A stretch of DNA of 64,000 bases, taken from Dictyostelium discoideum. Taxonomy: Eukaryota. Below the pieces are notes generated by a model. The model saw nothing but the letters and a program-made list of their open reading frames with translations. It did not search any database and was not told the DNA's origin. Position numbers and translations under genes: made by a program. Below are positions 11,501 to 61,386 of this stretch, piece after piece. Within the stretch, counting starts at the first letter, position 1, and each line of letters starts with the position of its first letter. The DNA lies in contig CM000152.2 in NCBI GenBank assembly GCA_000004695.1, positions 5,280,001-5,344,000 on the forward strand, given 5' to 3'.

Positions 11501-12785
11501 ACATAACTTGAATTGAATGGAGTAGTTTCATGATTAAATAAATTAGTTGTAACTGTTGAAAATGTTGGAATTCTTGATTGTTTTGATGGTATATCTAATG
11601 GTAAAATTTCATTTTTAGTTGAATGTTGACTACTTGTGTGGAATGATGATAATGAACCTAAAAATGCGCAAAAGATATTATTTTCTTTTAAATTTAATGA
11701 TATCTCTTTTAAAATATTTTCATTACCTGCAATTACAATTGATGTTGGTGAATTATAGCATGCAACTTCAATTGTTGGGTATTTATTTGAATAAAGCTCA
11801 ATAAATTCTGAATGACTGATATTAACTGATAACATTTTACCACATCCATTTGTATTATTTTGAGAAATTGATCTGTGATAAATTAATTTACAAACTGTTT
11901 GGAAATCTACCATACCTGAACAATATGATGTTGCGATTTCACCTAAACTATGACCAACGATGAATGATACATTGATACCCCAATGTTTGTATAGTTCAAA
12001 TAATGATATTTGTAACATTAATATCGATGGTTGAGCGATTATTGGTTGATGTATTGATATAATATCATCATCTTTAATTGATCTTAATTTATCTAAAACT
12101 GAGTATCCATAGTATTTACTTAACTCTTTATTGAATTTGTCCATCGATGATCTGAATATTGGTTCACATTCATAAAGTTGTTGAGCCATTTTATTCCATT
12201 GTGAACCTTGACCTCCGAAAACAATAACAACCAATGGTTGATTTCTTTTAATTGTAATATTTGAGGATTTGTCATTATTTGTTTTAAAGTACTTGTTTTT
12301 AGTTTTTAATTGATCCCAATTACTTGAAATTAAAACTGATCTTTGATATAGTTTCTTTGATTTTGAGTAAATTTGATTCTTAACAAACTCTTTGAATGAA
12401 TTTGTTGAAATTTTAATATCATTTATTATTAAGTCTTCATAATTTTTTAATGATTTTACTGAATTGGCTGAAAATGGTATTAAAAATCTTTGTTGTTGTT
12501 GTTGTTGTGATTCGGCAGGATAACTATGACCATTACCATTTTGATTGATTGATTGTTCAATAAACTGTGATAAAATTAAACAACAATTTGAACCAGTTAC
12601 ACCAAAGTTGTTAATAACCATTGATACTGGTTTTTCATTATTATTTGTAAATGGTATTGCTTCTGTTACAACTTTAATATTCCAATCTTTAAAGTTAATC
12701 TTTGGATTTGGTTGATCAAAATTAACATTTGGTGCATAATGTTTATTTTTAAACATTAAACAACATTTGATTAATGATGCAACAC
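5533..12785 (-). CDS. Type I iterative polyketide synthase, exon 3 of 3 (end of KS, then AT, DH, ER, KR, ACP and a C-terminal NAD-binding reductase-like domain)
   Basis: Motifs in the 2407-aa ORF: GHSLGE (AT active-site Ser); MDR/enoyl-reductase-like block …[10 protein letters not shown]…; [14 protein letters not shown] (ACP phosphopantetheine Ser); [14 protein letters not shown] (Rossmann motif of thioester-reductase/NAD_binding_4-type domains). Acceptor aatag|GTGTTGCATC at ~12785 continues the KS as …SG|[18 protein letters not shown]. Confidence 0.85.
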
Positions 12786-14049: not shown

Positions 14050-15247
14050 TTTTAATATTTCCAAAATAAAGTAAATTATATAAAATTATTATCAGAAAAA
14101 TAAAGTTATTAAAAAGGTATTTGTTATTAATATTCCAAATAAAAATAAAAAAAGATTCCATTTAAATAAATTATAAAAAAAAAAAATATGTAAATTAAAA
14201 AATTGATTTTACACACATACTCACATATAAACATATAATATATTTAATTAAACCAAAATATATTAGCTGTTTTGAAATAATCTCAAACTTTTCATCGTCA
14301 AGAGCAAACCATTGGTTGTTAATTTTATTTTAATGAAATTGTGATTTGTAGATGATGAGTAGATTTTATTTTTTAAAAAAAAAAAAAAAAATAAAAAAAA
14401 AACGTCTGGGTAGTTTTAAAAAAAAAAAAACACCTGGATGGTTTGAAAAAAAAAAAGTGTAATAGGGAGGTAAAGGGAAAAAAAAAAAATAATAATAATA
14501 AACTAAAATAAAAGGAGAAAAAAAAAACAAGAGTGGGTGAAAAAAAAAAAAAAATAAAAAAAAAACAAAATTTAAAAAATATCTATGTTTTTCTTTAATA
14601 GATCTTTTAAAATGGGAAAATAAAAAAAAAAAAAAACTAATTAAGATCTTGGTATTAAAAAAAAATCTCCACAGCAAAAGGGTTAAAAATGAATATGTTA
14701 ACACAGATTTGGGTGTAATTTTTTAAAACTAATAAGAGGTATTTCAAGAAAAAGCCTCTTTAAAACTATATATGGGTTTTTTTTTTTAAATCCTTTAATA
14801 AATTTATTTCCTTATCGATATTGTAAAATTATTTTTATTTTCGGGATTATTAATCTGACATTATAATTATTATTATTTATTAATTTTTTTTTCTTTTAAT
14901 ATTCTAAAAAATACCTAATAATTTCATAAAATAATTTATCATTTAAAAAAAAAAAAATTACAAATAAAAAAATTTAATCAATAAATTAAAATTTTAAAAC
15001 ATTTAATTTTTTTTTTTTTATCAAATTATGCGTGGTGTTTTTTTAAAATATCTTTTTTTAATTTTTTTAATTCTGAGAAAATAATTAAAATAATGAAAAA
15101 AAAAAAAATTTTATTTTTTATTTTATTTTTTTTTTTTCTATTGTTAAATTTTTATTCTTTGGTTATCTTTTTTTTTTTCAATTCTATTAAATTTTACCTT
15201 TTTTTTATTTTTTTTTTTTTTATATATTATTATTATTATTATTAAAG

Positions 15248-15388
15248 ATGTCAATGGTTTTAACCAAAGTTCCACCATTTCATTATATCCATGTTTTGGA
15301 TACAAATATACAAATTGTAAAGATGATTGAAGGTCCAATATCATATCTTGTAAAAGAACATGAAAAAATTGTAGTTCAACCAACAAGA
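15248..15388 (+). CDS. Major vault protein (MVP) homolog, exon 1 (MSMVLTKVPPFHYIHVLDTNIQ…VVQPTR)
   Basis: PPFHYIHVLD matches the vault N-terminus PPYHYIHVLD. Donor AGA|GTAAGA at 15388; acceptor ccaaag|ATGCAT at 15466. Confidence 0.8.
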
Positions 15389-15465
15389 GTAAGAAAAAAA
15401 TAAGAAATAAAGTTTTTTTAAAAATATTACACATCATTTTTAATACTTTTTTTTTTTTTCCAAAG

Positions 15466-16587
15466 ATGCATGTTATTCAAAATAATGAATATTGTATAAT
15501 TGAATCACCAGTTATTAGAGATCAAGATAAAAAGACAGTATTGGTTGATAAATACGGACAAGCAAAATTAAAACATGGATCAAGAGAGATTAGATTTGAA
15601 AGTGGGGAACCATTTCCATTGTATCCAGGTGAGAGTATGATCGGAAAGATATCACCATTGACAGTGATTTTAAATAATGAAGCCATCGTAATTAAAGCGT
15701 TAGTTGACTTTTTGGACACTGAAACTTCTAAACTTATTTCAGCAGGTGATGAATGGTTAATGTATGGTCCAGCAACTTATAAACCACGTGTAGAAGAGCA
15801 TGTCAAAGAAATTAGAAAAGCATTCATAGTGAAACCACACAACGCTTTGAAAATCATGGCAACCAATGATTTCAAAGATAAAGTCTACAAACAACAACGT
15901 AAATCAGGTGATGAATGGTTGATGACTGTCGAAGGACCATACATTCTAGATGCTTATGAAAAGTTGGTGGAAATCGTTGAGCCATATGTATTGGATGATA
16001 ATAACTCAATCCATGTTGCTGCCAATAGGAAGTTTGTAGATTCGAATGGTGTCGAGAGAAAAAAAGGTGATAAATGGTTACTCACAAAACAAGACACCAC
16101 TTTATTCATCCCTCAGCCATCTGTCACCGTTGAGAAGGTTGTGCCTGTGACTGTGCTAACCCAGTTGAATTATGTTATTATTAGTGATCCGTATGATGAG
16201 GAGACCGGTGCACCTTTGTTGGGTGAGAAAAAGATTGTTAAAGGTCCAAAGAATTTCTTTCAAAAACCTGGTGAGACTTTAAGCATTATTCAAAGTACTT
16301 ACATTTTGGAACCAGAGGATGCAGTTTATGTAAAGGTTTTAGAAGAATTTGAAGAATCTGTTCGTTCTGGAAATACTCTAAAAAATGTAACTAGAAAATC
16401 AGGTACTAAATATTTAGTCTATGGTCCATGTGAATACGTACCACCATTAACTGTACAAGTATTAAAGAAAACTAAAGCTATCATTTCAAATGAACAATTT
16501 GGAATTTACATTTTTGATTTGATGCCTGCTTTAAATGTTTTTGTAATTTTATTAATCTTTTATTTAATTTTAAAATTCTTTTTTTAG
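15466..16587 (+). CDS. MVP homolog exon 2, covering MVP repeat domains only (GDEWLMYGPATYKPRVEE…, GDEWLMTVEGPYILDAYE…, GDKWLLTKQDT…). MVP similarity ends near 16520; the last ~20 codons are a hydrophobic low-complexity tail before the stop
   Basis: Clear collinear similarity to the MVP N-terminal repeats. The conserved shoulder and cap-helix regions (about 400 more aa in canonical MVP) were not found downstream; 16590-17060 is A/T homopolymer. Confidence 0.75.
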   Translation: MHVIQNNEYCIIESPVIRDQDKKTVLVDKYGQAKLKHGSREIRFESGEPFPLYPGESMIGKISPLTVILNNEAIVIKALVDFLDTETSKLISAGDEWLMYGPATYKPRVEEHVKEIRKAFIVKPHNALKIMATNDFKDKVYKQQRKSGDEWLMTVEGPYILDAYEKLVEIVEPYVLDDNNSIHVAANRKFVDSNGVERKKGDKWLLTKQDTTLFIPQPSVTVEKVVPVTVLTQLNYVIISDPYDEETGAPLLGEKKIVKGPKNFFQKPGETLSIIQSTYILEPEDAVYVKVLEEFEESVRSGNTLKNVTRKSGTKYLVYGPCEYVPPLTVQVLKKTKAIISNEQFGIYIFDLMPALNVFVILLIFYLILKFFF

Positions 16588-16920
16588 AAAAAAAAAAAAA
16601 AAAAAAAAAAAAAAGAAAAACTATCATTTTTCAAATAATAAACTCTTTTGTGGATTTAATAGGAAAAAAAAAAAAAAAAAAAAAAAAACCAGAATGGTTA
16701 CATTCATTTTTTTTTTTTTTTATATTTTATATCATTTTGTGTATTTATATACAAAATTAATATTAAAAATAAATAAAATCAAATCATTGTATAAAAAAAA
16801 AAAAAAAAATAATATGGAAAATAAAATGAAAATATTTTTTTTTTTTTTTTTTTTTAAGTGTAAATAAAAATAAAAATAAAAATAAAAATAAAAAAATAAA
16901 AAAATTTTATGGAATATTCA

Positions 16921-16951
<31 letters not shown>

Positions 16952-17090
16952 TATTTTTTGAATTTAATAATTTTTTGTAAAATAAATAATTAAAATCATT
17001 ATTACACTGAATATACAATTACACCATACTATTTTTTAAAATTTTATTATTTTTTTATTTTTGGATCAAAAAGGGAACAATAATAATAAT

Positions 17091-17182
<92 letters not shown>

Positions 17183-17219
17183 TAATAATAATAACAGTAT
17201 ATATATTAGGTTTACAAAG

Positions 17220-18359
17220 ATGAGTTATAAAAACCATTCGAATTTAGTTTACAAATTACAAGCTATAGAGAGAGAGAAATCAAGAGTTGAAGATAGACTT
17301 GAAAAATTACACGATGATAAAAATAATTCATACCAACAACAACAACACTCTGGCTCAAAAAGAGGGAGAAATAATAATAATGATAATAGAATTCAAAATA
17401 ATAATAACAATAACAATAATAATAATAATGATAGAGCTAGAAAAAGACAACAAATTGAAAGTGGAGAAATTATATCAGGTGGTGAAACAACAACTACTAC
17501 AACAACCTCAACTTCAACTTCAACAAATGATAAACCCAAACCAATTTTAAATCAAGAACAACAAAAAAGAGGTAGAATGTTTGTTGGTTTATTAAATAGA
17601 ACATTACAAGATTTTCAAAAAGATATTACAAAAAAAACACAATCTGATAAAAAGAGAGAACAAATTGAACAAAAAGTTGAAAATACAATTAATCAAGAGG
17701 AACAAGAAAGAATTGAAAAAGAGAAATTAAAAAAACAACAACAACTTGAAAAAGAAAAGAAAATTCATGATGAATTAATTAGAAAACAAGAAGAACTAGA
17801 GGATAAAATATTACAAGAGACTTGGTCACTTCATAACAAAGTTTTATCCAATTTCAAATATAAAACTTTAAAATCCAATCCTCAAATTTATTTTTCACTT
17901 TCACCATTAGCCGATAAACATGGTTTCACTCTAAAGAATTACTTTAAAAATGATACTGACATCTCAATGAATCATTATGATAATGATACCAATAATAACA
18001 ATACTTTTAGCAGAAAAAATAAACCTGTCTCTGAGAAACCTGAAAAAAGAAGACGAAAACAACATGAAGATGATGATGATGATGATGATGATGATAATGA
18101 TAATGATGATTTTGATGAAAATGAAGATAATAATAATAATAATAACAACAATAATAGAAATGATATTAATAATAATAAAAATAATCAGGGTGAAAAAAAA
18201 GAACAAATTTTTGAAGAGATGAATAATAATAATGATGATAAAAACAAAAGTGATGGTAGTGGTGATAGCAGTGGCATTACAACTCCACCCCCCGATGAAA
18301 TAAAACCAACTGTAATTGAAAAAGATGAAAAATTAGACATTAATGAAAAAACTGTGTAA
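17220..18359 (+). CDS. Pinin homolog (pinin/SDK/memA domain), coiled-coil protein with N-rich and acidic low-complexity tracts
   Basis: KRGRMFVGLLNRTLQDFQKD…REQIEQKVE…ETWSLHNKV…YKTLKSNPQIYFSLSP is collinear with human pinin RRIFGLLMGTLQKFKQE…RQEIEQKLE…EEWNEHNAKI…KTKPHLFYIP. The ATG at 17220 is in frame with the upstream (AAT)n tract, which has no ATG and is probably 5' non-coding. Confidence 0.75.
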   Translation: MSYKNHSNLVYKLQAIEREKSRVEDRLEKLHDDKNNSYQQQQHSGSKRGRNNNNDNRIQNNNNNNNNNNNDRARKRQQIESGEIISGGETTTTTTTSTSTSTNDKPKPILNQEQQKRGRMFVGLLNRTLQDFQKDITKKTQSDKKREQIEQKVENTINQEEQERIEKEKLKKQQQLEKEKKIHDELIRKQEELEDKILQETWSLHNKVLSNFKYKTLKSNPQIYFSLSPLADKHGFTLKNYFKNDTDISMNHYDNDTNNNNTFSRKNKPVSEKPEKRRRKQHEDDDDDDDDDNDNDDFDENEDNNNNNNNNNRNDINNNKNNQGEKKEQIFEEMNNNNDDKNKSDGSGDSSGITTPPPDEIKPTVIEKDEKLDINEKTV

Positions 18360-18747
18360 TAAATAAATTTGTTGATTAGTTTTAGCGATAAACCAAAAAA
18401 AAAAAAAAAACAAATATTCCTTTTTCCAGTTTTCTTTTTTTTTATTCTGTTTTATTTTTTTTTTTTTTTTTTTTTTATTAAATCTTATGTTTTAAATAAA
18501 ATTAAATTAATTTTTAAAATATAAATAAATTGTATGTTTCAATCCTTTTTTTATATATATATATTTTTTTTTTTTTAAACTTTTTTTATTTTTTATTTTT
18601 TTTTTATTTTTTTTTTCTTTGTTATATTTATGATTGTTCTCTGTTTATTTAATAAAAGGAAAAAAGGAAAAAATTAAAAGTGTTAGTTATATATTATTAA
18701 AAACCTTACTTTTTTTTTTTTATTTTTTTTTTTATTATTATTATTAC

Positions 18748-19048
18748 TTACTTTGGAGCTTTTTTACCGGCACCTTCCAAACCTTTCTTAATGACAGCGA
18801 CGGATCTTTTAGAGTTACAAGCATTACAACATAAAAAGTATAAACGGTTGTTTCTTTCCAAGACAGTGTTTGGACTCTTACAATTACGGCAAGCTACGTA
18901 TTCTGAAATATAATGACGAATAACAATTTCAATTTGTGAAGTCTTAAATCTACCTCTAATAACAAGACGTTGATTACCATCAATTGAACCATTAGTACCT
19001 AACTCTGCAAAAACGTAATTATATACATGTTCAACTTTACGATTAAGA
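18748..19048 (-). CDS. Translation initiation factor eIF2 beta subunit, exon 2 (C4 zinc-ribbon: …FAELGTNGSIDGNQRLVIRGRFKTSQIEIVIRHYISEYVACRNCKSPNTVLERNNRLYFLCCNACNSKRSV…)
   Basis: Strong collinear match to eIF2-beta C-terminus (AELGTSGS…KGRFQQKQIE…YVTCHTCRSPDT…RLYFLQCETC). Acceptor aatttag|TCTTAATCG. Confidence 0.85.
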
Positions 19049-19135
19049 CTAAATTTATAATTAAAAAAATAAAAATAATAATATGTTAATATGTATAATT
19101 TCTTTTTTTTTTTTTTTTTAATAATTAATTCTTAC

Positions 19136-19779
19136 GTTCCACAAATTTCAGCAAAATTAGCCCAAATTGTTTTTTTAGTACCTTCACGCATAACTTGTGG
19201 TGGTTTCATTGTACGTTTTTGGTCAGAGATTAAATCTGGATTATTAGCTTGGAGGAGATGATAGATTCTATAGGTGAGTTCAGAATATTTGTAATCACGA
19301 TCAGTACCAGCCCATGGGATAGTACCTTGAACAAAGGTATCACCATCACTTGTTGTAATGGTTTTTTCTTTTGATTCACCATCTTCGGTTGGTTCGGTTT
19401 CAGTTGGTTCAGTGGTGGTGGTGGTGGTGGAGGTGGTGGTGGTAGTTGAGGATTTGCTTGATTTCTTCTTCTTTTTCTTTTCACCCATAAACTCTGCTTC
19501 TATATCTTCGTCATGTGCACCTTCATTTTCAAGTTTTTCAATTGCTTCACTGTTTTCACCTTCAGTTGATGCTAATAATGCTGCTTTCTTTTTCTTTCTC
19601 TTTTCTTTTTTTTCATCTTCTTGTTCTTGTTCATCCTCTTGTTGACTCATCATTGCTAAAGTTTTAGATTTTAATTTCTTTTTCTCTTCTTCAGTTTGTG
19701 CTGCTGAATCCTTTGATTTCTTCTTCTTTTTCATTGTAGTATCAAATACTAAAACATTTTCTTCTTCTGTTGCTGACAT
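19136..19779 (-). CDS. eIF2 beta exon 1 (lysine-box K-rich N-terminal region; …REGTKKTIWANFAEIC)
   Basis: Poly-Lys boxes and TKKT..ANF..IC match eIF2-beta. Donor GGAAC|GTAAGA at 19136. The two exons total 945 nt, i.e. 315 codons including the stop. Confidence 0.85.
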
Positions 19780-19887
19780 TTTTAAACTAAAAAAAATTTA
19801 TTTCTTTATTTTAATATAATAATTTTAAACTTTTTTTAAAAAAAAAATATAAAAAAAAAAAAAAAAATATTTTGATAAAAAATTTTG

Positions 19888-48851: not shown

Positions 48852-49790
48852 ATGGAAGAATCAAATAACAATAATTTTTTATTTTCACCAGATTATATTT
48901 GGTCTCAATTACTTGAAAATAATAATAATAATTATAATAATAATTATAATAATATTAATAATAGCATTAATGAAAATTTACTAAATGAATTGAATAGTTT
49001 TCAAAATACAGGAGTATTTGATTTAGATACAAATATAGAACAGCAGCAACAACAACAACCAACTGAAATTCAACAACAACTACAAAACTATCAAGAATTC
49101 CAACAAAAAAAATATCAAGAACGTCAAGAACAATATCAAATTCAATATCAACAATCATATATAGAACCTTTAAATTTTAATGAAACATATAATAATGAAA
49201 CATATTGTAATATAATACCACAACCGCCCCAGGTTGAACAACAACAAGAACAAGAACAAGAACAAGAACAACAACAAAAACAACAACAACAACAATATAT
49301 TGAAAAACAAATACAAGAAATAATAAAAATACCAGAAAAAAGGCAAACACTTAACCAGATTCCTATTGAAATGATGCAACATAATTTCTTTAATACACCA
49401 AAACTTGATCAACAACTACTCTCAAATTATTCAGACTTTTTTAAAACAAATCCAATTTTACCTACAACCACAACAACAACAACAACCACAGCAATAACAA
49501 TAGATCAACAACAACAAAACCATATTGATAATCAGTCATTAAATAATTCAAACACAAAAACATCAAAGAACCAACAAAAAGATAATAATTTACCAAAAAA
49601 AAAGAATTTATCCTATGATATCACAAAAATAACATTTAATAATAATAATATAGAAAAAAAGAGAGACCAAACTGAATCAAGTAAAAATTTTAGAGAAAAA
49701 AAAAAGGAGTATGTAAAAGAAATTGAAAGTAAAATTTTAGCTCTAACCCTTGAAAATGATAAACTTAAAAAAGAAAATGATTCATTAAAA
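48852..49790 (+). CDS. bZIP transcription factor paralog A, exon 1 (N/Q-rich; ends in basic region …[39 protein letters not shown])
   Basis: Basic region plus the start of a heptad Leu zipper. Donor TTAAAA|GTATTT at 49790. Confidence 0.65.
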
Positions 49791-49878
49791 GTATTTTTAT
49801 AAAAATTAATAATTAATAATAATAAGAAAAAAAAAGAAAGATTATTAACAAAAAATACTTTATTTATTATATAATTAG

Positions 49879-50706
49879 ACTATTAATGGATCAAATTTAA
49901 TGAGACCAGAACCAGAATCAATTAATATGATAATGGAATGTAAAAAAATTATAAAAAAACTGGAAAAAGCATTAATTGATAATGATGAAAGATCATTAAT
50001 TTATTTATTATATCATTATCATAGTGAAACATCAAAAAGGTATTCATTAGTAGAAATTGAAGTTGATAAAATTGCAAACCCATATTCACAAATAAAATTA
50101 AAGTTAGCAGGTTATATTCAAAATCCAACAACTTTAGATATTTTTGATGGTAATTTTAATAATAATAATAATAATAATGGTAATAAAGAAGAAGAAGAAG
50201 AAATATCATGGTTTATAAAATATAAAAATGAAGCAAATCTTACAATTGAACAATCAAATAAATTAGATTTATTACGTAATCAACATGGTTTAATTTTTGA
50301 AACCTTATTAAAAGAAAGAAAACAATTGGATAATGAAATTTTAAAAGTTTTTAATGAAATTATAATTGCTAGTTACGATGGTTCAAATGCAAATTTAATT
50401 AGTGATAAAGGATTTGAATTAAAGAGTAAATTGAAATCATTAAAAATGAAAATCATTTCAAGTTTAAATTTAAATTTAGATACATTCTCATCAATTAGTT
50501 CCATTTTATTACCAAAACAAGAAGCATTACTTTTGGTTAGAGCTCATTTATTTGGTTCAAGTAAATTAAATCCTCAAATGGATTTTTTAAATAATGTTTG
50601 GACAAATATAATCTCTTCAAATTCTTCATGTAGTGTTTTCGAAATTTTAAATTCTTTAAAGGAATTTTCCGATTTAGAAAATTTAGAATTAAATAAAAAT
50701 TCATAA
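49879..50706 (+). CDS. bZIP paralog A, exon 2 (…TINGSNLMRPEPESINMIMECKKIIKKLEKALIDNDERSL… C-terminal domain)
   Basis: Frame open from acceptor ataattag|ACTATT (49879) and in phase with exon 1. The track ORF starts at an internal Met. Confidence 0.6.
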   Translation, partial: TINGSNLMRPEPESINMIMECKKIIKKLEKALIDNDERSLIYLLYHYHSETSKRYSLVEIEVDKIANPYSQIKLKLAGYIQNPTTLDIFDGNFNNNNNNNGNKEEEEEISWFIKYKNEANLTIEQSNKLDLLRNQHGLIFETLLKERKQLDNEILKVFNEIIIASYDGSNANLISDKGFELKSKLKSLKMKIISSLNLNLDTFSSISSILLPKQEALLLVRAHLFGSSKLNPQMDFLNNVWTNIISSNSSCSVFEILNSLKEFSDLENLELNKNS

Positions 50707-51008: not shown

Positions 51009-51421
51009 ATGGAAGAATCCAATAATTTTTTATTATCTCCTGATTCCATTTGGTCTCAACTATTAGAAAATTCATATGCATTAAATGAAATCAATTGTTT
51101 TCAAAGTTTTGGAACAATTGATAATAATAATAATAATTATAGTAATAATAATAAAAATGGTAATGAAGAACTCTCACAACCAACTGAAATTCAACAACAA
51201 TTACAAAATTATCAGGAATTACAACAACAAAAATATCAGGAGCGTCAACAACAATATCAAACTCAATACCAACAACCATATATAGAGCCAATTTTTGAAA
51301 TCGTAGTTACTCAACAAGATCAACAAGAACTAATTCCACAACAACAACAACAAGAACAAGATCAACAAGAAGATCAAGATCAAGAACAAGAACAAGAACT
51401 ACAACAACAACAACAACAACT

Positions 51422-51509
<88 letters not shown>

Positions 51510-51759
51510 AAACAACAAAAACAACAAAAACAACAGCAACAAGAACAACCGTCAATAATTAAAGAACAAGACCAAGAACAAAAGAAAATAATTCAAGAAC
51601 AACTATGTGAAAAATCAATACAAACATTAGAAAATCATTTTTTTAATACAAATACCCCAAAATTAGATCATCAAATACTTTCAAACTATTCTGAATTTTT
51701 CAAAATAAATCAACCAATAACAGATATACCTACAACTCTAAATACGAACTTACAAAGTG

Positions 51760-51842
<83 letters not shown>

Positions 51843-52073
51843 TTATTAAATGAAAAACAAATTGAATCAACATCAAAAATAAAAAGAATTAATTTAGGTT
51901 ATGATATTACAAAAATAACATTTAATAAAATTGAAAAAGGTAAAAGAAATCAAACTGAATCAAGTAAAAATTTTAGAGAAAGAAAAAAAGAATATATTAA
52001 AGATATTGAACTTAAATTAAAAGAATTAACAATTGAAAATGATAAACTTAAAAAAGAAAATGATACATTAAAG
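51009..52073 (+). CDS. bZIP paralog B, exon 1 ([21 protein letters not shown]…; long poly-Gln; …[39 protein letters not shown])
   Basis: Same N-terminal motif MEESNN(F)[14 protein letters not shown] and the same basic region as paralog A. Donor TTAAAG|GTATAT. Confidence 0.65.
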
Positions 52074-52166
52074 GTATATATATATATATATATTTATTTA
52101 TTTTTTAAAAATAAAAAAATATTAATTAACTTTTAATTTATTTTTTTAAAAAAAAAAAAAAAAAAG

Positions 52167-52438
52167 AAAATAGGAATTGAAATAATGAGATCAGAACCAG
52201 AATCAATTAATATGATAATGGAATGTAAAAAAATTATAAAAAAACTTGAAAAAGCATTAATTGATAATGATGAAAGATCATTAATTTATTTATTATATCT
52301 TTATCATAGTGAAACATCAAAAAGATATTCATTAACAGAGATTGAAGTTGATAAAATAATAAATCCATATTCACAATTAAAATTAAAATTAGCAGGTTAT
52401 ATTCAAAATCCAACAACTGAAATTTTAGATATTTTTGG

Positions 52439-52508
<70 letters not shown>

Positions 52509-53054
52509 GATGATAATGAAGAAGAAGAAATATCATGGTTTAAAAAATATAAAAAAGAAGCAAATCTTACAATTGAACAATCAAATAAATTAGATTTATT
52601 ACGTGATTATCATTGTTTAAAATTTGAATTACTTTTAAAAGAAAGAAGAGAACTTGATAGAGATATTAAAAAATTATATAATGGTATTGCATTAAGTGGA
52701 TTTGATTTAACACCAAGATCGTTAGCAAATTGGGATATTGATAAACAAATTGAAACTACAAATAAATTAAATCTATTGAAAATTAAAATCATTTCAAGTT
52801 TAAATTTAAATTTAGATACATTCTCATCAATTAGTTCAATTTTATCACCAAAACAAGAAGCATTACTTTTGGTTAGAGCTCATTTATTTGGTTCAAATAA
52901 AAAAAATCCTCATATTGAAATTTTAAATAATGTTTGGACTGGTTTAATTTCTAAATCTTCTTCTCCAAGTTTTTTTGAAATTGCAAAACTTTTAAAAGAA
53001 ATGTCAGATTCTGCCAATGCTAAAATTATGGAAGATTATTTATATAAAAAATAA
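52167..53054 (+). CDS. bZIP paralog B, exon 2 (…KIGIEIMRSEPESINMIMECKKIIKKLEKALIDNDERSL…)
   Basis: The acceptor aaaaaaag|AAAATAGGA at 52167 gives a phase-0 continuation; the alternative AG at 52172-52173 is out of frame. Almost identical in protein to paralog A exon 2 over the first ~60 aa. Confidence 0.5.
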
Positions 53055-53540: not shown

Positions 53541-53551
53541 GGAATCGAACC
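53541..53551 (-). promoter_or_regulatory. ex-B box (GGTTCGATTCC on minus) 30 bp downstream of tRNA-Ser copy 1
   Basis: Exact B-box consensus outside the tRNA. Confidence 0.65.
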
Positions 53552-53580: not shown

Positions 53581-53661
53581 CGACACCTGCAGGGTTCGAA
53601 CCTGCGCCTCCGAAGAGAACGCCTTAGCAGGGCGCCGCATTAACCACTTTGCTAAGGTGTC
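53581..53661 (-). tRNA. tRNA-Ser (anticodon GCU), copy 1, 81 nt with long variable arm
   Basis: Minus strand GACACCTTAGCAAAGTGGTTAATGCGGCGCCCTGCTAAGGCGTTCTCTTCGGAGGCGCAGGTTCGAACCCTGCAGGTGTCG. Anticodon loop CTGCTAA; acceptor GACACCT/AGGTGTC; T-arm GCAGG-TTCGAAC-CCTGC. Confidence 0.85.
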
Positions 53662-54599
53662 ATCACAAAAGTTTTGTTTGACTCACTTTATTAAAATGTC
53701 ATCTCAAACTATTTGGGGTGATACACTTTGCTTAGGTGTCACCGTGACAACAACATCAAACTCAACCTTCAATTCAAACAAATTATCCAGAACAACAACA
53801 ACCAAAATTAACACAATTAACATCAATTGAGATCTCTGCAAACTTGATTTTAGTAAATTTCTCTAAAATTTTATTTTTTTTACTTTTTTTTTCCTAGAAA
53901 TTAATTTTCAAATTTTTTTTTTTTACCTTGGAGGTTACCAAGATTTATTTTTTGTAACCTTCCAGTTTTTTTGAGTTTTTTTGAGTTTTTTTTATTTTTT
54001 ATTTTTTTTTTTTCTTAGTGTGTGTTGTTATAAAACAAATGTGTTCATATTTGTTTTAATTTTCCTCTCTTTTTTTTTTTAGTGTTTATTTATTTTTATT
54101 TTGTGTTCATTCTAACCAAGTCAAATATAAAAAGAAAAGAAAAAAAAAAAAAAGAAAGAAATAGAAAAAAAGAAAAGAAAAGAAAAGAAAAGAAAGAAAT
54201 AGAAAAAAAGAATAAAAATAATAATAAAAAAACTTTACAAATCATGTGAAAATAATAATAATAGTAATAAATCTGCTTTTATAAATTTTTTTTATTAAAT
54301 TTAAATAAAAAAAACAAATTAAGAATATATTTTTTTTGTTTTATTTTTAATTTTGAAATTTCATTTGATTTTTTCTCAAATAAAAGTAAATTATTTTTAT
54401 TTAAAATTAATTATTTGTTATCGAATAAAAAAAAAATTTAATTCAAAATAAATGAAAGTGACAATTCAAATTTATTATTTTTAAATTTAGTTTATTTTTA
54501 AAATTTACTTTTATAAACATTAAAAAGACTTGTTTTCAATTCAATGTAAAAATTTTCAATAAAAAAAACATTCATAATAAATTTTAGATATTGTCGATA

Positions 54600-54885: not shown

Positions 54886-55121
54886 TGGATTAACAAGATT
54901 GATATATGTCCATCTGTGTTAATACGAGTTTTATTTAATATTTATTTAAAGGCTTATCATTTAAGCTGAAGGGTTATTTTAATCATATGAATTGATCAAA
55001 AGATATAATATTTGGGAGAGATGATTCTGGTCTACATAATGGTGATGTTTTTGTATTATTTATTTATTTTTTTACAACAGGAGTCGAACCTGTTATTATG
55101 TTTTGAATTTTGGAAAAATTT

Positions 55122-55202
55122 CGACACCTGCAGGGTTCGAACCTGCGCCTCCGAAGAGAACGCCTTAGCAGGGCGCCGCATTAACCACTTTGCTAAGGTG
55201 TC
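55122..55202 (-). tRNA. tRNA-Ser (GCU), copy 2, identical to copy 1
   Basis: Identical 81-nt sequence. ex-B box GGTTCGACTCC (minus) at 55080-55090. Confidence 0.85.
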
Positions 55203-55249
55203 ATCGAAAATAAAATGGGAGATACACTTTCCTAAGGTGTCATTGAATC

Positions 55250-55527
55250 AAAAAATAATCAGATCGAAAAAAACAAACAACAACAACAATCTCTTTTTTT
55301 GATTATTTCATTTTTCATATAAAAAAGACTTAAAAAACAAATAAATAAATAAATAAACTATTTTAAAAAGCCATCTTTTTACTTTATTGTAATTTATTAT
55401 TTGTTTCGTTTTGAGAATTTTGCGTAGCAAAATTTTCAAAAAAAAAGCAAAAAATAATCAGATCGAAAAAAACAAACAACAACAACAATCTCTTTTTTTG
55501 ATTATTTCATTTTTCATATAAAAAAGA

Positions 55528-55575
<48 letters not shown>
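55250..55575 (+). mobile_element. Poly(A)-terminated element fragment beginning about 48 bp upstream of tRNA-Ser copy 2. Contains an 80-bp internal direct duplication (55253-55333 and 55448-55528) and ends in A46
   Basis: Position 48 bp 5' of the tRNA with oligo(A) distal is the TRE5 insertion geometry. Exact 80-bp duplicate visible. Likely a 5'-truncated TRE5 3' end or 3'-UTR module. Confidence 0.35.
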
Positions 55576-55578
<3 letters not shown>

Positions 55579-57280
55579 GGAACCAAGTTAATTAGAAAAT
55601 TTCCAGATTTTTAACTTTTTAAAGAAAAATAAAAAAGATAGAAAGAAAATAAAATGAAAATCCCAAACAACACCCCAAATATTAAGCAACACAAATGCCT
55701 ACAAAAAATAAGCGAAATTGTGGATAAAACTCAATTAAAAAAAAAACAATTCAAATACGTCATAAACATCAATCACGAACCAGACGATAAAATAAAAAAA
55801 GATTTAGAAAAAAGTTTGGACAAAAAAGATGTTTTAATCAAAAGTAATAATACATTCAAAATTCTCACAGACAGTATTAGTACAGTAATCTATTTTGTAA
55901 ATATGTTTGATGCAGAATTAAAAGGACAATTTATAACCACTATAAGACCAAAAAATATGTATACAGATTTTGATTGGTATAAATCACTCACAGAAATAGA
56001 ATGGGTAATAGAAAATGAAGGATGTAAACTAATTAAATCAGAAATTAAAGGCGAAACTCTAATTATCAAAACAGTGAAAAGAGTCGTAGAAGAATTTGAC
56101 ACTATCATTGAACTAGACAATCTAACATTAATTGGACACTCCAACAAAGGATGGAGAGATCAAACCTCATTACCAGAAAATCAAGAAGAAAACAAAAATA
56201 AAAAACAATCAGATGAACAACAACCACAATCTACATCAGAACAAATACCAAAACAAGGAAAAAGAACAATCATTATCCCACCAATCACATCCTCATCTAA
56301 TGATAAAACATTTATGGCCCTAGATGATACAGCTCAAAAGGTAATAGAAGCATCACTAGAAAACGTAGATGAACTAACAAGAATAGAGAATGAGATCAAT
56401 ACACAATCGATAAACAATCAAGAAATTAAAACAAAATCAGAAAAACCTATCGAACCACCATCTCCATACAATACACCAATAAAACAACACGGCGAAACAA
56501 AGGGACTAACAACGGAAGAAAAACTTAGAGAGGCAAATGATATCTTCGACTTCACCAGCCCAAACACTGATGCAATAAGAAAAATAGAATTCCCACTTTC
56601 AATCCCTTCAAATCAATGGTTCTTCTCCTCTCCAATAAAACATATCATGAGTTTCAGCCCAACCTATGGGCACCATCGAAAATTATCGATTCACCAAGTA
56701 AATTGTTAAACACACCAAAAAAGAAACAACAAGACAAAACAAACAAGACCAACAAAACACCAGTCAAACCAAAATTGGGTGAATATGGACAAAAAAGCAT
56801 AAAAACAAAAATGGATGAAGATATAGACAACTTCAACAAGGAAATTCTAAAACAAATCAATAAATCAAAAAACCCCACAAACACACAAGACCAACAACAC
56901 AACGAACAAAGTAAAGATCAGTTAGAAGACAAAATAAACCAGAAACTTCAAAAGGTAGATAAAAATCTACCCCAAATAAAACTATAAAGAAAAACACAAT
57001 AAGAATAGGTGTTTGGAACGTCCAAGGATCCAACACCATCCAATCTGCCAGCATAATAAACACCGTTTTAGACAACAACAAGCTGGACGCAGCACTTCTA
57101 ACTGAAACAAATATAAAAACAAATAAAATTTACTCAATAAATCAACAATATAAAAACAAAATAACACACCACGCACCAATTGATAAAACAGGACAAGGGG
57201 TGTCACAAATCATCATCAACACCCGCAATAGAACTTCCTAAACATCTCAAAAAATACAATAATTCACTCAGTACTTTTTA

Positions 57281-57340
<60 letters not shown>
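55576..57340 (+). mobile_element. TRE5-type (DRE-like) non-LTR retrotransposon copy, degenerate and internally deleted: 5' leader, ORF1 (55654-56709, continuing in a shifted frame to 56987), first ~80 codons of ORF2 (AP-endonuclease N-terminus …IRIGVWNVQGSNTIQSASIINTVLDNNKLDAALLTETN…), then truncated with oligo(A) at 57290-57340
   Basis: The ORF2 start matches the APE/L1-endonuclease N-terminal pattern (W-N-[VI]-x-G…D[IV]xxLQET). It is tRNA-proximal on the 5' side of a tRNA, and a second partial copy follows. The specific TRE5 subfamily cannot be assigned from memory. Confidence 0.55.
55654..56709 (+). CDS. Retrotransposon ORF1 (351 aa as read; frameshifted near 56630-56700, original ORF probably to ~56987)
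   Basis: The first 63 codons (MKIPNNTPNIKQHKCLQKISEIVDKTQLKKKQFKYVININHEPDDKIKKDLEKSLDKKDVLIK) recur, 61/63 identical, in the second element copy at 57383-57571. Confidence 0.5.
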   Translation: MKIPNNTPNIKQHKCLQKISEIVDKTQLKKKQFKYVININHEPDDKIKKDLEKSLDKKDVLIKSNNTFKILTDSISTVIYFVNMFDAELKGQFITTIRPKNMYTDFDWYKSLTEIEWVIENEGCKLIKSEIKGETLIIKTVKRVVEEFDTIIELDNLTLIGHSNKGWRDQTSLPENQEENKNKKQSDEQQPQSTSEQIPKQGKRTIIIPPITSSSNDKTFMALDDTAQKVIEASLENVDELTRIENEINTQSINNQEIKTKSEKPIEPPSPYNTPIKQHGETKGLTTEEKLREANDIFDFTSPNTDAIRKIEFPLSIPSNQWFFSSPIKHIMSFSPTYGHHRKLSIHQVNC

Positions 57341-57341
<1 letters not shown>

Positions 57342-57660
57342 CAAGTTAATCAGAAAAATAAAAAAGATAGAAAGAAAATAAAATGAAAATCACAAACAAC
57401 ACCACAAATATTAAGCAACACAAATGCCTACAAAAAATAAGCGAAATTGTGGATAAAACTCAATTAAAAAAAAAACAATTCAAATACGTCATAAACATCA
57501 ATCACGAACCAGACGATAAAATAAAAAAAGATTTAGAAAAAAGTTTGGACAAAAAAGATGTTTTAATCAAAAAGACCCTGTAAAAAAAAAAAAAAAATAA
57601 AATGAGATCTAGCATCTCAAGGAGAAGCAAATAATAATTGCGTTATCCAATTCAAAAAAA
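57341..57660 (+). mobile_element. Second TRE5-type copy reduced to its 5' leader, the first 63 codons of ORF1 (57383-57571), and an ~85-bp 3' terminal segment (ccctgtaaaa…gagatctagcatctcaaggagaagcaaataataattgcgttatccaattc + oligoA)
   Basis: The leader (cccaagttaatcagaaaaataaaaaagatagaaagaaaataaaatg) is homologous to 55590-55656. The same 3' terminal segment recurs alone at 59489-59580. Confidence 0.5.
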
Positions 57661-57666
57661 AAAAAA

Positions 57667-57950
57667 GGTGTCATTGAATAAAATGGGATGATACACTTTG
57701 CTAAGATGTCATCGAAAACCAAATGGGTAATACACTTTGCTAAGCTGTCATCGAAAACCAAATGGGTAATACACTTTGTTAAGGTGTCATCGAAAACCAA
57801 CGGGTGATACACTTTGCTAATCTGTCATCGAAAAATATTTGGGTGGTAAACTTTGCTAAGGTGTCCACACAAAATATTTGGGTGATACACTTTGCTAAGG
57901 TTTCGTCGAAAAATATTTGGGTGATACACTTCGCTAAGGTGTCATTGAAA
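57667..57950. repeat. Tandem array of about 7 units of a 42-bp repeat (gtgtcatcgaaaaccaaatgggtgatacactttgctaaggt). Each unit contains the first ~17 nt of tRNA-Ser(GCU), including its A-box, plus ~25 nt of its 5' leader
   Basis: cactttgctaaggtgtc is the plus-strand image of the tRNA 5' end GACACCTTAGCAAAGTG. Shorter versions sit directly upstream of each tRNA-Ser copy (53662-53760, 55203-55250, 59447-59488 and 59579-59660). Confidence 0.8.
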
Positions 57951-59365
57951 AATAAACCACCACAAGACTAATTTTTTGATAAATAATTTTTTTTTTATAG
58001 TTTTTATTGTTTTTTTTATTTTTTTTAAGAAAATGTGGCTGAATAATAATTTTTGAAACTATATTAAAATAAAAAATAATTAAAAAAAATACAAAAAATA
58101 AAAATAATCAGTAAAGTGATTTATATTTTTAATTTATAAAAAAATATAAAAAAAATGAATATACATTCTGCAAACTCGATTTGACTCCATTTGGTTTCTA
58201 ATTGTCTTAAAAATTATTTTTTTTATTTTTCCTTTTTTTTTTTCTTAATTTTTTAAAAAATAACAATAAATCTTACCCTATCAAAATTGTTATTTTTTTT
58301 TCTATTTTAGGATTTATTACATATTTAATTAATATAATTACTTTATTACTATTGTATTTTACAGTTGTAGTTTTTTTTATATAAGATGGCTCGAGATGAG
58401 TAACTGGACTGTCTAATTTTAGGAATTTAAAAAAAAAAATAAAAACTATTCAGAGAACCCAATTTCATTTTTAATTTTTTTTTTTTTTTTAGGGAGTTTA
58501 ATTCAAGAACAATTATAAACCATTTTAACTAATAATAATATAAGTTTTTTTTTTTTTTTATAATATTTTATAATATAAGTTGTTTTTTTTATTTTATTTT
58601 ATTTTTTTAATTATAATTAAATTTGTTTTTGAAATGCAGTTTTATTTAAAAATTCTAAGGTTTTTTCAATAAACTTTATTGAAAAATTTAGGGGAGTTAT
58701 ATGGCCATATATTTTCCTTAATGTCATGGTGCATAGATAAATCTTTCCTTTCTCTGACTTTAGATTAATATTGATTATTTTTATTTCCCTTTGGATATGA
58801 TAGTATTGATATGAACATTGATGTTTTAATAATACACATTTTTCAGCATTTCTATTGTAAAACAACACTTCTATTTAATTTAATGTCACATTTCATCAAC
58901 ACCAATATTTAACTTAAATTTTTTTTTTTTTTTTTTTTTTTTTGATTTTTTTTTTTTTTATAATTTTATTTTAATTTTTTTATATAAAAAGATATAATTT
59001 TTTTTTTTCATTTTATTATTAATTTAAAAAGGTAAAAAAAAAAAAAAAACATTTAGTAAAAACTTTACTTAAATAATCATGTTAAAAATTAATATCTATT
59101 AAATATTTATTTTATTGATGACCTCATTAAATTCAAATTTTAATACAGTCAACGGAGATCGAAGTGCCTGTATCTTAAATTGTGCTCATTAACAAACAAT
59201 TTATATAAAATCTTGTTCAGATTTGTTTATCTTGTTAATTCGTTTTTTATTTTTGTTACTAACATACTATTGATCTACAAATAGTAATAGTAAGCATTTT
59301 ATTTTTTCCAACAGGAATCGAACCTGTTATTCAGCTTTGAATGTTGGGAAATTTTTGCAAAATTT

Positions 59366-59446
59366 CGACACCTGCAGGGTTCGAACCTGCGCCTCCGAAG
59401 AGAACGCCTTAGCAGGGCGCCGCATTAACCACTTTGCTAAGGTGTC
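59366..59446 (-). tRNA. tRNA-Ser (GCU), copy 3, identical to copies 1 and 2
   Basis: Identical 81-nt sequence. ex-B box (GGTTCGATTCC, minus) at 59314-59324. Confidence 0.85.
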
Positions 59447-59488
59447 ATCCAAAACCAAATGGGAAATACACTTTGATAAGGTGTCATC

Positions 59489-59580
59489 GAAAAATCCAAT
59501 GACCCTGTAAAAAAAAAATAAAATAAAATGAGATCTAGCATCTCAAGGAGAAGCAAATAATTGCGTTATCCAATTCAAAA
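59489..59580 (+). mobile_element. Solo ~90-bp retroelement 3' terminal segment + oligo(A), inserted 43 bp upstream of tRNA-Ser copy 3 and splitting its 42-bp leader repeats
   Basis: Same sequence as the 3' end of the element at 57580-57660. Flanked on both sides by leader-repeat units. Confidence 0.5.
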
Positions 59581-59806
59581 AAAAAAAAAAGTGTCATCGA
59601 AAACCAAATGGGTGATAAACTTTGCTAAGGCGTCATTGAAAAATATTTGGGTGATGATTTTTTGTGAAATTTCGGCTGGAAGATAAAGAATTGCTTCATA
59701 AAATTTTAAATAAAAATGCTTTATTACCATTAATTAAAATTATAAATAAATAAAACAAATTTCAAAATTTAAATATAATATTACACTTTATTATTTTTAT
59801 TTTTAT

Positions 59807-60803
59807 TTATTTTTTTGATTTTTCAATTAATATCTTTGGTTCTTGTTTTTGTTGAGATAAAATTAATTGATATCTTGATAAAATTTCATCATTAAATTGA
59901 TTATCATCATTATCAATTAAATTTTGTTTTTTCTCTGAAATTAAAGTAATTATAGTATCTGTATATTTCATTAATAAATTTGAATCAATTTTTAAATTTT
60001 TAAATAGTTGTAATTCATTATTATTATTATTATTATCATTAAATGATGAAACTTCTTGAAGTATAATTTTAAAATCATCAAATCTTGAAGATATAAAGTT
60101 ATTAAAACTTGATAAATATTCTTCTTTACCACTTGAAAAAGTTACTTGATTTGAAATATTTTGAAGTATTTTACTCACTAGTGTTAAAGTTCTTCTAACA
60201 TTTGAATTTGGAGCAACTGAAATTAAACCCAATGCCTCTGGTGAAAAGATAGCAGGATTAACGAATCTAAGGAAAAAGAAACCACCAACTGATTTAATAT
60301 TATCATTTGGATATTTCTTTTCAACCAATTGATTAATGATTTGACAAATTTGACGAATTTCAATTGGTAATTGATCGGCTAACGATGCTTTAATAGCTGT
60401 TATGAATGATGAACAAAAGAATGATAATTGAATTGCATTTTGTTCGACTTCAGCCTCTGTTATACCACCTTTGCTTGGATCAACCTCCAAATTGATATCA
60501 TTTTTAATCATTGACATAATTAATGGACATAATGCCTCTTTTAAATAGCCAAATCCAATGGTTTTAAATATTGATACAATCACTTTAGTTGATAATGAAT
60601 CAGTTCTAAATAAAACTTTAGCATCATTAGTTTGTTCAATTTCAATCGATGCTAAATCTCTAACAATATCAATTAATTCTTTACCACTTTCACTACAATT
60701 TGAAAAATAATACATTATTGCTTTACCAAAATCATCTGAAATTAATTGTTTTGATAATTTTATAATTAAACTATGATTATTTTTAATTAAATACTTTTTT
60801 TAA
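59807..60803 (-). CDS. C2-domain RasGAP gene, exon 3 (RasGAP catalytic domain; FLRFVNPAIFSPEA signature)
   Basis: FLR..NPAI.SP is the RasGAP fingerprint with the arginine finger upstream. The frame is open from acceptor aaaaaaaag|TATTTAATT (~60803), reading YLIKNNHSLIIKLSKQLISDDFGKAIMYYFSNCSESGKELIDIV…. Confidence 0.75.
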
Positions 60804-60884
60804 TAATAATAATAATAATAATAATAAAATTAATTAATTAAAAATCTAATAAAAATATATATATATATATTATTTATTTAAATT

Positions 60885-61123
60885 TAAAACTTACATTTGT
60901 TAATGAAGTAAATGAATAATAACAAAGTTGAATATGAATATCACCTCTTTTTTTTGCTTTTTTATTTGGATTTTTACCTTCAAGTGGTATCCAAATATCT
61001 CTTTGACCTTTAGTTTTATATTCATCAATATTAATTCTAACTAATCCCATAAAATCATCTTTACTAAATTTATCTTCATCATACATTAAAATTGAAATAA
61101 TTTGTGAATTTTCAATTACATCA
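60885..61123 (-). CDS. C2-RasGAP exon 2 (C2 domain C-terminal half: …DVIENSQIISILMYDEDKFSKDDFMGLVRINIDEY…DIWIPLEGKNPNKKAKKRGDIHIQL…)
   Basis: C2 beta-strand pattern (…v.vyD.D…dDf.G…i.l…). Donor ACAAAT|GTAAGT (~60885); acceptor aaataaaag|TGATGTAATTG (~61123). Confidence 0.6.
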
Positions 61124-61386
61124 CTTTTATTTTTTTTTTTTTTTTTTTTTTTTGGAAAAATTAAAACATAATATTATGTTAAAAAATAAATTCAAGAGTT
61201 ATTTTTTTTAAGGGAGTCGCATGGAAAATAAAAAAATAAAGTAAAAAAAAAAAAGAGGCGACAAACACACCAGCGTCGCATAAAATTACTTTTCACCACT
61301 TTAATGCCAAAAAATTTTTACATCCAACCACCCTTAATTTTTTTTCAAAAATAAAATATATTATATAAATATATAAAAAAACTTAC

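Follow-up and report, generated by a model that had tools for sequence, protein, structure and literature searches.

All three tRNA-Ser(GCU) genes in a 64,000-nucleotide stretch of Dictyostelium discoideum AX4 chromosome 3 (5,280,001-5,344,000; hereafter the window) are preceded by tandem arrays of a 39-bp unit, in which the first 17 nucleotides of the tRNA itself are joined to 22 nucleotides of leader. Tandem Repeats Finder as well as matches to the 17-mer and the leader bear out the initial annotation of this DNA, which had placed such arrays upstream of every copy of the gene. Here we describe their anatomy, their phylogenetic distribution, the turnover of their copy number, their junctions with transposons and their lack of a promoter consensus. 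The arrays probably represent a lineage-specific, variable-number and neutral minisatellite without dedicated function, which would have been amplified by slippage or unequal exchange and copied along with the gene.

ARAGORN and Rfam concordantly identify the three identical tRNA-Ser(GCU) genes, all of them on the minus strand. SerGCU-9, SerGCU-8 and SerGCU-7 form together with GluCUC-1 and GlyUCC-4 the five tRNA genes of the window, and after addition of 5,280,000 their positions match those published (S2 Table, PMC5391098). According to the same table, AX4 has a total of 12 SerGCU genes in clusters of two (chromosome 1), three, one and three (chromosome 3), two (chromosome 4) and one (chromosome 6). 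The loci read here are those of SerGCU-7, -8 and -9; arrays at the nine other, unlinked genes (chromosome 1, chromosome 3 at 5.78 and 5.90 Mb, chromosomes 4 and 6), if present, would go beyond a simple local history. De novo TRE5-A integrations have been recorded at SerGCU-7, -8 and -9 alike (S2 Table, PMC5391098). Thus, all three genes are live Pol III targets. SerGCU-8 and SerGCU-7 have at least 640 bp of flank in common (83-89% identity), SerGCU-9 being more distant. An external B box downstream of the gene is a known feature of Dictyostelium tRNA genes. It is present as a perfect GGTTCGAYTCC at all three SerGCU genes, with its 5' end 30-42 bp past the last nucleotide of the gene.

An open reading frame of 96 amino acids (55012-55302, plus strand) runs antisense through SerGCU-8 and its proximal unit. 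Since both the sense and the antisense frame are open across the tRNA and the units, spurious gene calls are possible at these loci. None was found over SerGCU-8 in the protein database, and a protein look-up for gene calls over the SerGCU genes with a chimeric peptide from both open tRNA frames returned no match. The window also contains a paralogous pair of two-exon genes in tandem (48852-50706 and 51009-53054). Glutamine is abundant in the N-terminal part, which ends in a basic/leucine-zipper-like stretch, the second open reading frame starts with MR(P/S)EPESINMIMECKK, and the orthologue of the pair in assembly L002, described below, is annotated with weak bZIP hits.

On the minus strand, each unit consists of GACACCTTAGCAAAGTG, corresponding to nucleotides +1 to +17 of tRNA-Ser(GCU), followed by a leader of about 22 nt, e.g. 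TATCACCCATTTGGTTTTCGAT. The unit had been annotated as 42 bp with a leader of 25 nt; its tRNA part of 17 nt is as annotated, and the measured values are 39 bp (range 38-41) with a 22-nt leader. With up to three mismatches, the 17-mer has 14 matches in the window compared to 0.03 expected, and 14 of the 14 lie on the minus strand, within or directly upstream of the three tRNA genes. In a window-wide search the leader 22-mer was confined to the arrays. The units follow each other head-to-tail and in register with the gene, and the last unit of each array runs straight into the tRNA. Since this unit directly abuts the gene, the 22-mer is the gene's own leader.

The longest array is that of SerGCU-8. 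For 57665-57956, Tandem Repeats Finder gives a period of 39 with 7.5 copies, 82% matches and a score of 323 as well as a second, higher-order period of 116 bp (about 117 bp), i.e. three units, in the same array. The seven unit starts of this distal block, from 57943 to 57710, agree with the roughly seven units annotated before. At its far end the block also has a partial leader-like remnant, and its near end (57672-57667) consists of the 6 nt with which the next unit begins. The shorter arrays at SerGCU-9 and SerGCU-7 were likewise found where they had been placed, and the AX4 unit numbers at SerGCU-9, -8 and -7 amount to 2, 8 and about 3. Alignment of the units shows blocks of similar neighbours. 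The 17-mers of the units have diverged by 1-5 mismatches, while the gene copies are 100% identical. The majority fraction among the AX4 units is 0.92 in the 17 tRNA-derived nucleotides compared to 0.78 in the leader.

Table 1. Features of the SerGCU-7/8/9 region (window coordinates)
Feature	Position	Strand	Remarks
tRNA-Ser(GCU) SerGCU-9 (copy 1)	53581-53661	-	ARAGORN, Rfam, S2 Table
SerGCU-9 array, two degenerate units	53662-53740	-	17-mer mismatches 1 and 4; without retroelement
External B box of SerGCU-9	53541-53551		equivalent to SerGCU-8 box
tRNA-Ser(GCU) SerGCU-8 (copy 2)	55122-55202	-	ARAGORN, Rfam, S2 Table; nt +1 to +17 are the repeat template
External B box GGTTCGACTCC	55080-55090	-	downstream of SerGCU-8
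SerGCU-8 array, tRNA-proximal unit	55203-55241	-	GACACCTTAGGAAAGTG + TATCTCCCATTTTATTTTCGAT
Target-site duplication GGTGTCATTGAAT, proximal copy	55236-55248	+	13 bp
TRE5-A.2-type non-LTR retrotransposon	55249-57666	+	2.4 kb; 5' end faces tRNA 5' end
TRE5-A.2 A-modules	55246-55357; 55445-55556
TRE5-A.2 B-modules	55623-55843; 57352-57572
TRE5-A.2 ORF1	55654-56709		97-99% identical to AX4 TRE5-A ORF1 proteins
TRE5-A.2 C-module and poly(A)	ends 57666
Target-site duplication GGTGTCATTGAAT, distal copy	57667-57679	+	13 bp
SerGCU-8 array, distal block	57667-57966	-	seven units of 38-39 bp
SerGCU-8 array, distal unit starts	57943, 57904, 57865, 57826, 57788, 57749, 57710	-
tRNA-Ser(GCU) SerGCU-7 (copy 3)	59366-59446	-	ARAGORN, Rfam, S2 Table
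External B box of SerGCU-7	59314-59324		equivalent to SerGCU-8 box
SerGCU-7 array, proximal unit	59447-59485	-
Duplication GTGTCATCGAAAA	59481-59493; 59591-59603		around truncated TRE5-A
5'-truncated TRE5-A (C-module end and poly(A))	59494-59590	+	about 97 bp; in SerGCU-7 array
SerGCU-7 array, distal unit and partial leader-like remnant	59596-59660	-	unit at 59596-59634

Furthermore, the orthologous loci were fetched by way of the RasGAP/C2 gene, whose end lies about 360 bp away from the SerGCU-7 array. The comparison comprised two assemblies labelled D. discoideum (GCA_054859385.1 and GCA_054859355.1, here L001 and L002), D. dimigraforme (L003), D. firmibasis (L004) and D. purpureum. The RasGAP/C2 gene of L001 and L002 is 93.8% identical to that of AX4 and the flanks are 80-90% identical (as compared to window 59609-61211); judged by sequence, L001 and L002 look like cryptic sister species of the discoideum complex, not like strains. 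Both carry two tRNA-Ser(GCU) genes, each preceded by an array of the same 39-bp architecture. The unit numbers in L002 are 8-9 and about 4, and the eight to nine units, which abut the RasGAP-proximal tRNA, are unbroken and free of any transposon. The arrays of L001 are broken up by transposons and their unit numbers differ again. The units of L001 and L002 are of a variant with GACAAC and a leader ...CCCAAAACTTTTGAGAT, those of AX4 have GACACC and a leader ...CCCATTTGGTTTTCGAT or ...CCCAAATATTTTTCGAT. The majority fraction among the L001 and L002 units is 0.92 in the tRNA-derived part compared to 0.91 in the leader. The idea that the arrays grow next to the tRNA, by new copies taken from the gene, was considered and rejected, because the most distal unit of L002 equals the tRNA 17-mer and the most proximal one has 4 mismatches.

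The outer boundary of the SerGCU-7 array is orthologous in AX4, L001 and L002. Of the two tRNAs in L001 and L002, the first is the orthologue of SerGCU-7 and the second that of SerGCU-9. Since both the array boundary and SerGCU-9 are orthologous across these genomes, the two arrayed copies are, as far as can be judged from this alignment, older than the split between AX4 and L001/L002, and SerGCU-8 is on the same grounds a later duplicate of SerGCU-7.

Outside these three genomes the arrays are absent from the orthologous loci compared. D. dimigraforme and D. firmibasis have one tRNA-Ser(GCU) gene each, and no match to the 17-mer with up to four mismatches was found within 1.5 kb upstream. The comparison with D. 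purpureum that had been proposed along with the initial annotation was carried out and found no tRNA at the orthologous position. The 81-nt gene is identical in all copies of AX4, L001 and L002 and in D. dimigraforme. In D. firmibasis, ACATCTTA occurs at -29 and +2, as much being reached by 105 of 5000 shuffles, and in D. dimigraforme a 7-mer is found at -35, with 347 of 5000 shuffles reaching as much; these matches are suggestive at best of a putative vestigial proto-repeat in the sister species. The D. firmibasis gene (L004 12411-12491) has a T at nucleotide 5 and at nucleotide 68, which in the acceptor stem gives a U5.U68 mismatch compared to C5-G68 in D. discoideum. From its sequence, this gene may be in decay, or a compensatory change may be under way.

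The distal units of SerGCU-8 are separated from their gene by 2.4 kb of DNA that had been annotated as three nested retroelements. The layout of this DNA is A, A, B, ORF1, B, C, and an exact and single duplication of GGTGTCATTGAAT surrounds it. Because this layout matches the AB-ORF1-BC structure of the non-autonomous TRE5-A.2 (PMC3159450) and only one 13-bp duplication is present, a single TRE5-A.2-type element is the simplest account of the 2.4 kb. It entered the array 46-47 bp upstream of +1 of SerGCU-8. Thus, the distal block (57667-57956) is a part of the SerGCU-8 array that was split off by TRE5-A.2, and this array comprised eight units before the insertion. A second, 5'-truncated TRE5-A is located in the SerGCU-7 array. 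As had been annotated, the arrays served as the substrate of TRE5 insertions, since the TRE5-A sequences lie inside them with their own duplications. Both AX4 insertions are about 46-47 bp upstream of the true tRNA and have 13-bp duplications. [quoted passage not shown] The distance in AX4 is measured from the true gene and not from the pseudo-5' ends.

These junctions bear on where the units come from. The initial annotation had itself raised the objection that the units might be a known TRE or DRE module resembling the tRNA, and an assembly artefact may be considered along with it. The one point in favour is the nearness of the units to TRE5-A sequence. However, the units lie outside the element boundaries as given by poly(A) and matching duplications, they continue in register into the gene itself, and arrays recur in three independent assemblies. 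A module or artefact is refuted by the junction sequences and is next to impossible. Since the units are outside the duplications and free of elements in L002, they are not a TRE5-A module, and their identification as target DNA is supported.

Alternatively, the arrays could be by-products of retrotransposition, either by template switching during target-primed reverse transcription, as had originally been proposed, or by target-site duplications that piled up. In agreement with this, the arrays are located exactly in the landing zone of TRE5-A and DGLT-A and have been struck repeatedly. However, the units are not separated by poly(A), C-module or other sequence of an element, and the clean L002 array of eight to nine units abuts the tRNA and contains no retroelement. 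In addition, the TRE5-A target-site duplications are 13-15 bp long, lie at about -47 to -34 and do not extend past the tRNA-like position +6, and those of LTR elements are about 5 bp long, whereas the units are 39 bp long, reach +17 and occur in up to nine copies, most of them following each other without an element in between. Finally, four tRNA loci beside TRE5-type elements in a cf. discoideum genome are free of such a repeat. An origin of this kind is therefore highly improbable.

The promoter content of the units was assessed as well. The Dictyostelium A box comprises 11 nt (+8 to +18) with TRRYNNARYNG as the stringent and TNNNNNANNNG as the most permissive pattern (PMC5391098). The A-box-like element that had been annotated in each unit is present at 10 of 11 positions; since the units stop at +17, it is incomplete, and the final conserved G (nt +18) is replaced by T or A in 12 of 12 AX4 units. 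Neither the stringent nor the most permissive pattern is matched by any of these 12 units, and all genes match. With up to two mismatches, the B box GGTTCGANNCC was found at the internal and external boxes of the three genes and nowhere in the arrays, the real B box being 39 x n bp further from each unit. Lacking the last base of the A box and having no B box, the units are by their sequence probably inert for TFIIIC.

Insertions displaced from the tRNA in L001 and L002 are of relevance in this context. At 11969-12108, L001 has an insertion of about 140 bp with the termini TGTAATGAAT...GGTTATTACA (TG...CA) and a 5-bp duplication (AAAAC), which ends 14 nt upstream of the unit at 12123-12163 and 94 nt from the true tRNA. 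This unit is two units (80 bp) away from the tRNA, is 41 nt long and has regained a full A box (TGACAAAGTGG) by a 2-nt insertion; among about 28 true units in the three genomes no other has the A box complete. The same two proximal units are present in L002, where the insertion is absent. To judge by its termini and duplication, the insertion probably represents a solo LTR from a related family. The neighbouring full-length element of L001 (~14856-19785) was examined as its source and discarded, because the terminal 10 nt alone match and blastn with the interior gave no hit. The full-length LTR element at the real tRNA is at a distance of 13 nt.

The second displaced insertion is a TRE5-A stub of 51 bp, consisting of C-module and poly(A), at 14680-14730 in L001 and 14840-14890 in L002. 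It is 96-98% identical to window 57616-57666 and carries the duplication TTTTGAGATGACAAC. Its position relative to the unit is that of both AX4 insertions, and its distance to the gene is 117 bp in L001 and 151 bp in L002 compared to about 47 bp. The displaced insertions are thus in the canonical unit register, but their distance from the real tRNA is too large by two or three units. The end of another element, in two copies (...ATTTCTGTGTGTTCAA...GATACGAGGTTCTTTACA), is nested distally in the second array of L001 (14230-14300, 14640-14716) and L002 (14360-14426, 14700-14820); one of the copies breaks a unit at +3/+4 of the tRNA-like part.

If the units were active pseudo-promoters, their A-box-like ends would act with the real B box, with TFIIIC and TFIIIB in registers 39 x n bp upstream. 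Alternative start sites, 'loading pads' for these factors and alternative retroelement target sites would then be expected, and the initial annotation had proposed A-box decoys or TFIIIC loading pads in this sense. The displaced insertions point in this direction: the sole unit with a full A box has the probable solo LTR 14 nt upstream, close to the 13 nt at the real tRNA, its counterpart in L002 is without it, and the TRE5-A stub keeps the unit register at 117 and 151 bp. In addition, it has been argued that TRE5-A takes its distance from the A box and not from the B box (PMC5391098). However, the terminal A-box G is missing and TNNNNNANNNG fails in all 12 AX4 units, a B box is absent from every unit, and the units decay while the genes are identical. 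Both AX4 insertions are spaced from the true gene, and the presumed target unit of the stub is without a complete A box today. The displaced events are two in number, and a gain of units after the insertion explains them equally well, given the changing unit numbers and the three-unit higher-order repeat. Either such a later gain of units between transposon and gene, which is plausible, or targeting of pseudo-units may account for the two events. Overall, it appears unlikely that the units act as pseudo-promoters. The more specific proposal that a unit with a regained full A box re-registers TFIIIC (tauA) and TFIIIB, such that initiation and integration of DGLT-A-like elements and TRE5-A would be shifted 39 x n bp upstream, seems quite doubtful.

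We therefore return to the minisatellite, a reading based on the anatomy of the arrays, their restriction to one clade, the fast change in unit number, the lineage-specific homogenised variants and the absence of a promoter consensus. Two observations speak against it: in AX4 the tRNA-derived 17 nt are somewhat better preserved among the units than the leader, which does not apply to L001 and L002, and the two displaced insertions would need a later gain of units or a targeting of pseudo-units. The course of the minisatellite may have been as follows. The 39-bp segment from -22 to +17 of one tRNA-Ser(GCU) gene would have been tandemly duplicated in the ancestor of the D. discoideum complex. 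The duplicate would then have been amplified and turned over; we infer replication slippage and unequal exchange as the mechanism, and likewise the neutrality of the arrays. Finally, the array would have been copied along with the local duplication of the tRNA, which raised the number of genes from one to two in the complex and to three in the AX4 lineage. Because it occupies the upstream region of Pol III genes between 50 and 350 bp, the array would be hit by TRE5-A and DGLT-A-like elements, serving as a passive landing zone for these tRNA-targeting retroelements.

The search was extended to other loci and genomes. TRE5-type ORF1 homologues led to two further loci with four tRNAs, and also to two transposon clusters without tRNAs in other assemblies. 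Reiteration of the 5' end was absent at the eight non-Ser tRNA loci examined (Glu and Gly in AX4, Gly and Glu in D. firmibasis, and Leu, Thr, Asp and Val in the cf. discoideum genome). The initial annotation had allowed that the arrays might be confined to this locus by a single local duplication. This holds in half: all three copies are local paralogues, the arrays occur in the discoideum complex only, and nothing similar is present at these eight other tRNA loci. Bacterial and archaeal genomes scanned for the unit junction and for the tRNA gave no match. A scan of metagenome contigs with a 14-mer, a pattern too short for this purpose, yielded 120 single chance matches, none of them tRNA-like or AT-rich like Dictyostelium. 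Dictyostelium tRNA-gene clusters and the upstream landing zones of TRE5-A and DGLT-A have been described (PMC3159450, PMC5391098, PMC5006619); in the literature searched, outside which key older papers lie, arrays of tRNA 5' ends at nuclear tRNA genes of Dictyostelium are not described.

As found here, the SerGCU arrays have little consequence for biology, being probably an ordinary minisatellite and not a new regulatory device. For annotation it is of importance that SerGCU reads and primers may mis-map within the arrays. Furthermore, the array dates the expansion of SerGCU-7/8/9 from one gene (D. firmibasis, D. dimigraforme) to two (discoideum complex) and three (AX4), and it provides a clear example that the upstream landing zone of tRNA-targeting retroelements is itself unstable. 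Should the pseudo-5' ends nevertheless position Pol III factors or integration, they would offer a natural test of the rule that TRE5-A inserts 'about 48 bp upstream'. If a regained A box could indeed re-register the machinery, the arrays would constitute a natural 'A-box ruler', in which the integration distance depends on the A box and nothing else.

When compared to known systems, the arrays share with ordinary minisatellites the head-to-tail arrangement, a unit of 39 bp within the range of 10-100 bp, a copy number that differs between lineages and paralogues (AX4, L001, L002) and block-wise as well as higher-order similarity. Unlike in ordinary minisatellites, the unit includes the start of a functional gene, so that the array ends in register with this gene. 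SerGCU-7/8/9 form a typical close-set cluster of identical genes, as known from the tRNA pairs and triplets of D. discoideum, and the landing zones are those of other Dictyostelium tRNA genes, with TRE5-A about 47 bp and LTR elements about 13-14 bp upstream. In Entamoeba, too, tandem repeats are tied to tRNA genes in an amoebozoan, as far as the available part of the source goes (PMC2652664). There, whole tRNA-containing units are arrayed genome-wide, and in that part of the source the STRs are not described as copies of 5' ends (PMC2652664), whereas in D. discoideum the SerGCU array is found at one locus and its unit is a gene fragment.

The closest documented analogue appears to be the plastid trnF(GAA) pseudogene array of Brassicaceae, Solanaceae, Asteraceae and others, where between one and seven, or more, partial copies occur, each 32-73 bp long (PMC3786074); this is a likeness in kind and not membership in a family. 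In both cases partial tRNA copies stand in tandem close 5' of the functional gene, and the SerGCU units are likewise partial copies of the adjacent gene, located directly 5' of it and restricted to one clade. The trnF arrays arose once, at the base of a clade, vary in copy number across taxa and are regarded as non-functional (PMC3786074), to which the SerGCU arrays may be likened. However, the trnF arrays are part of a plastid genome with bacterial-type upstream promoters, whereas the SerGCU arrays are nuclear and precede Pol III genes with internal promoters. Moreover, the trnF copies have retained chiefly the anticodon, D and T domains, the acceptor stem being seldom present (PMC3786074), whereas the SerGCU units consist strictly of the 5' acceptor strand and a partial D arm (nt 1-17) together with the 22-nt leader.
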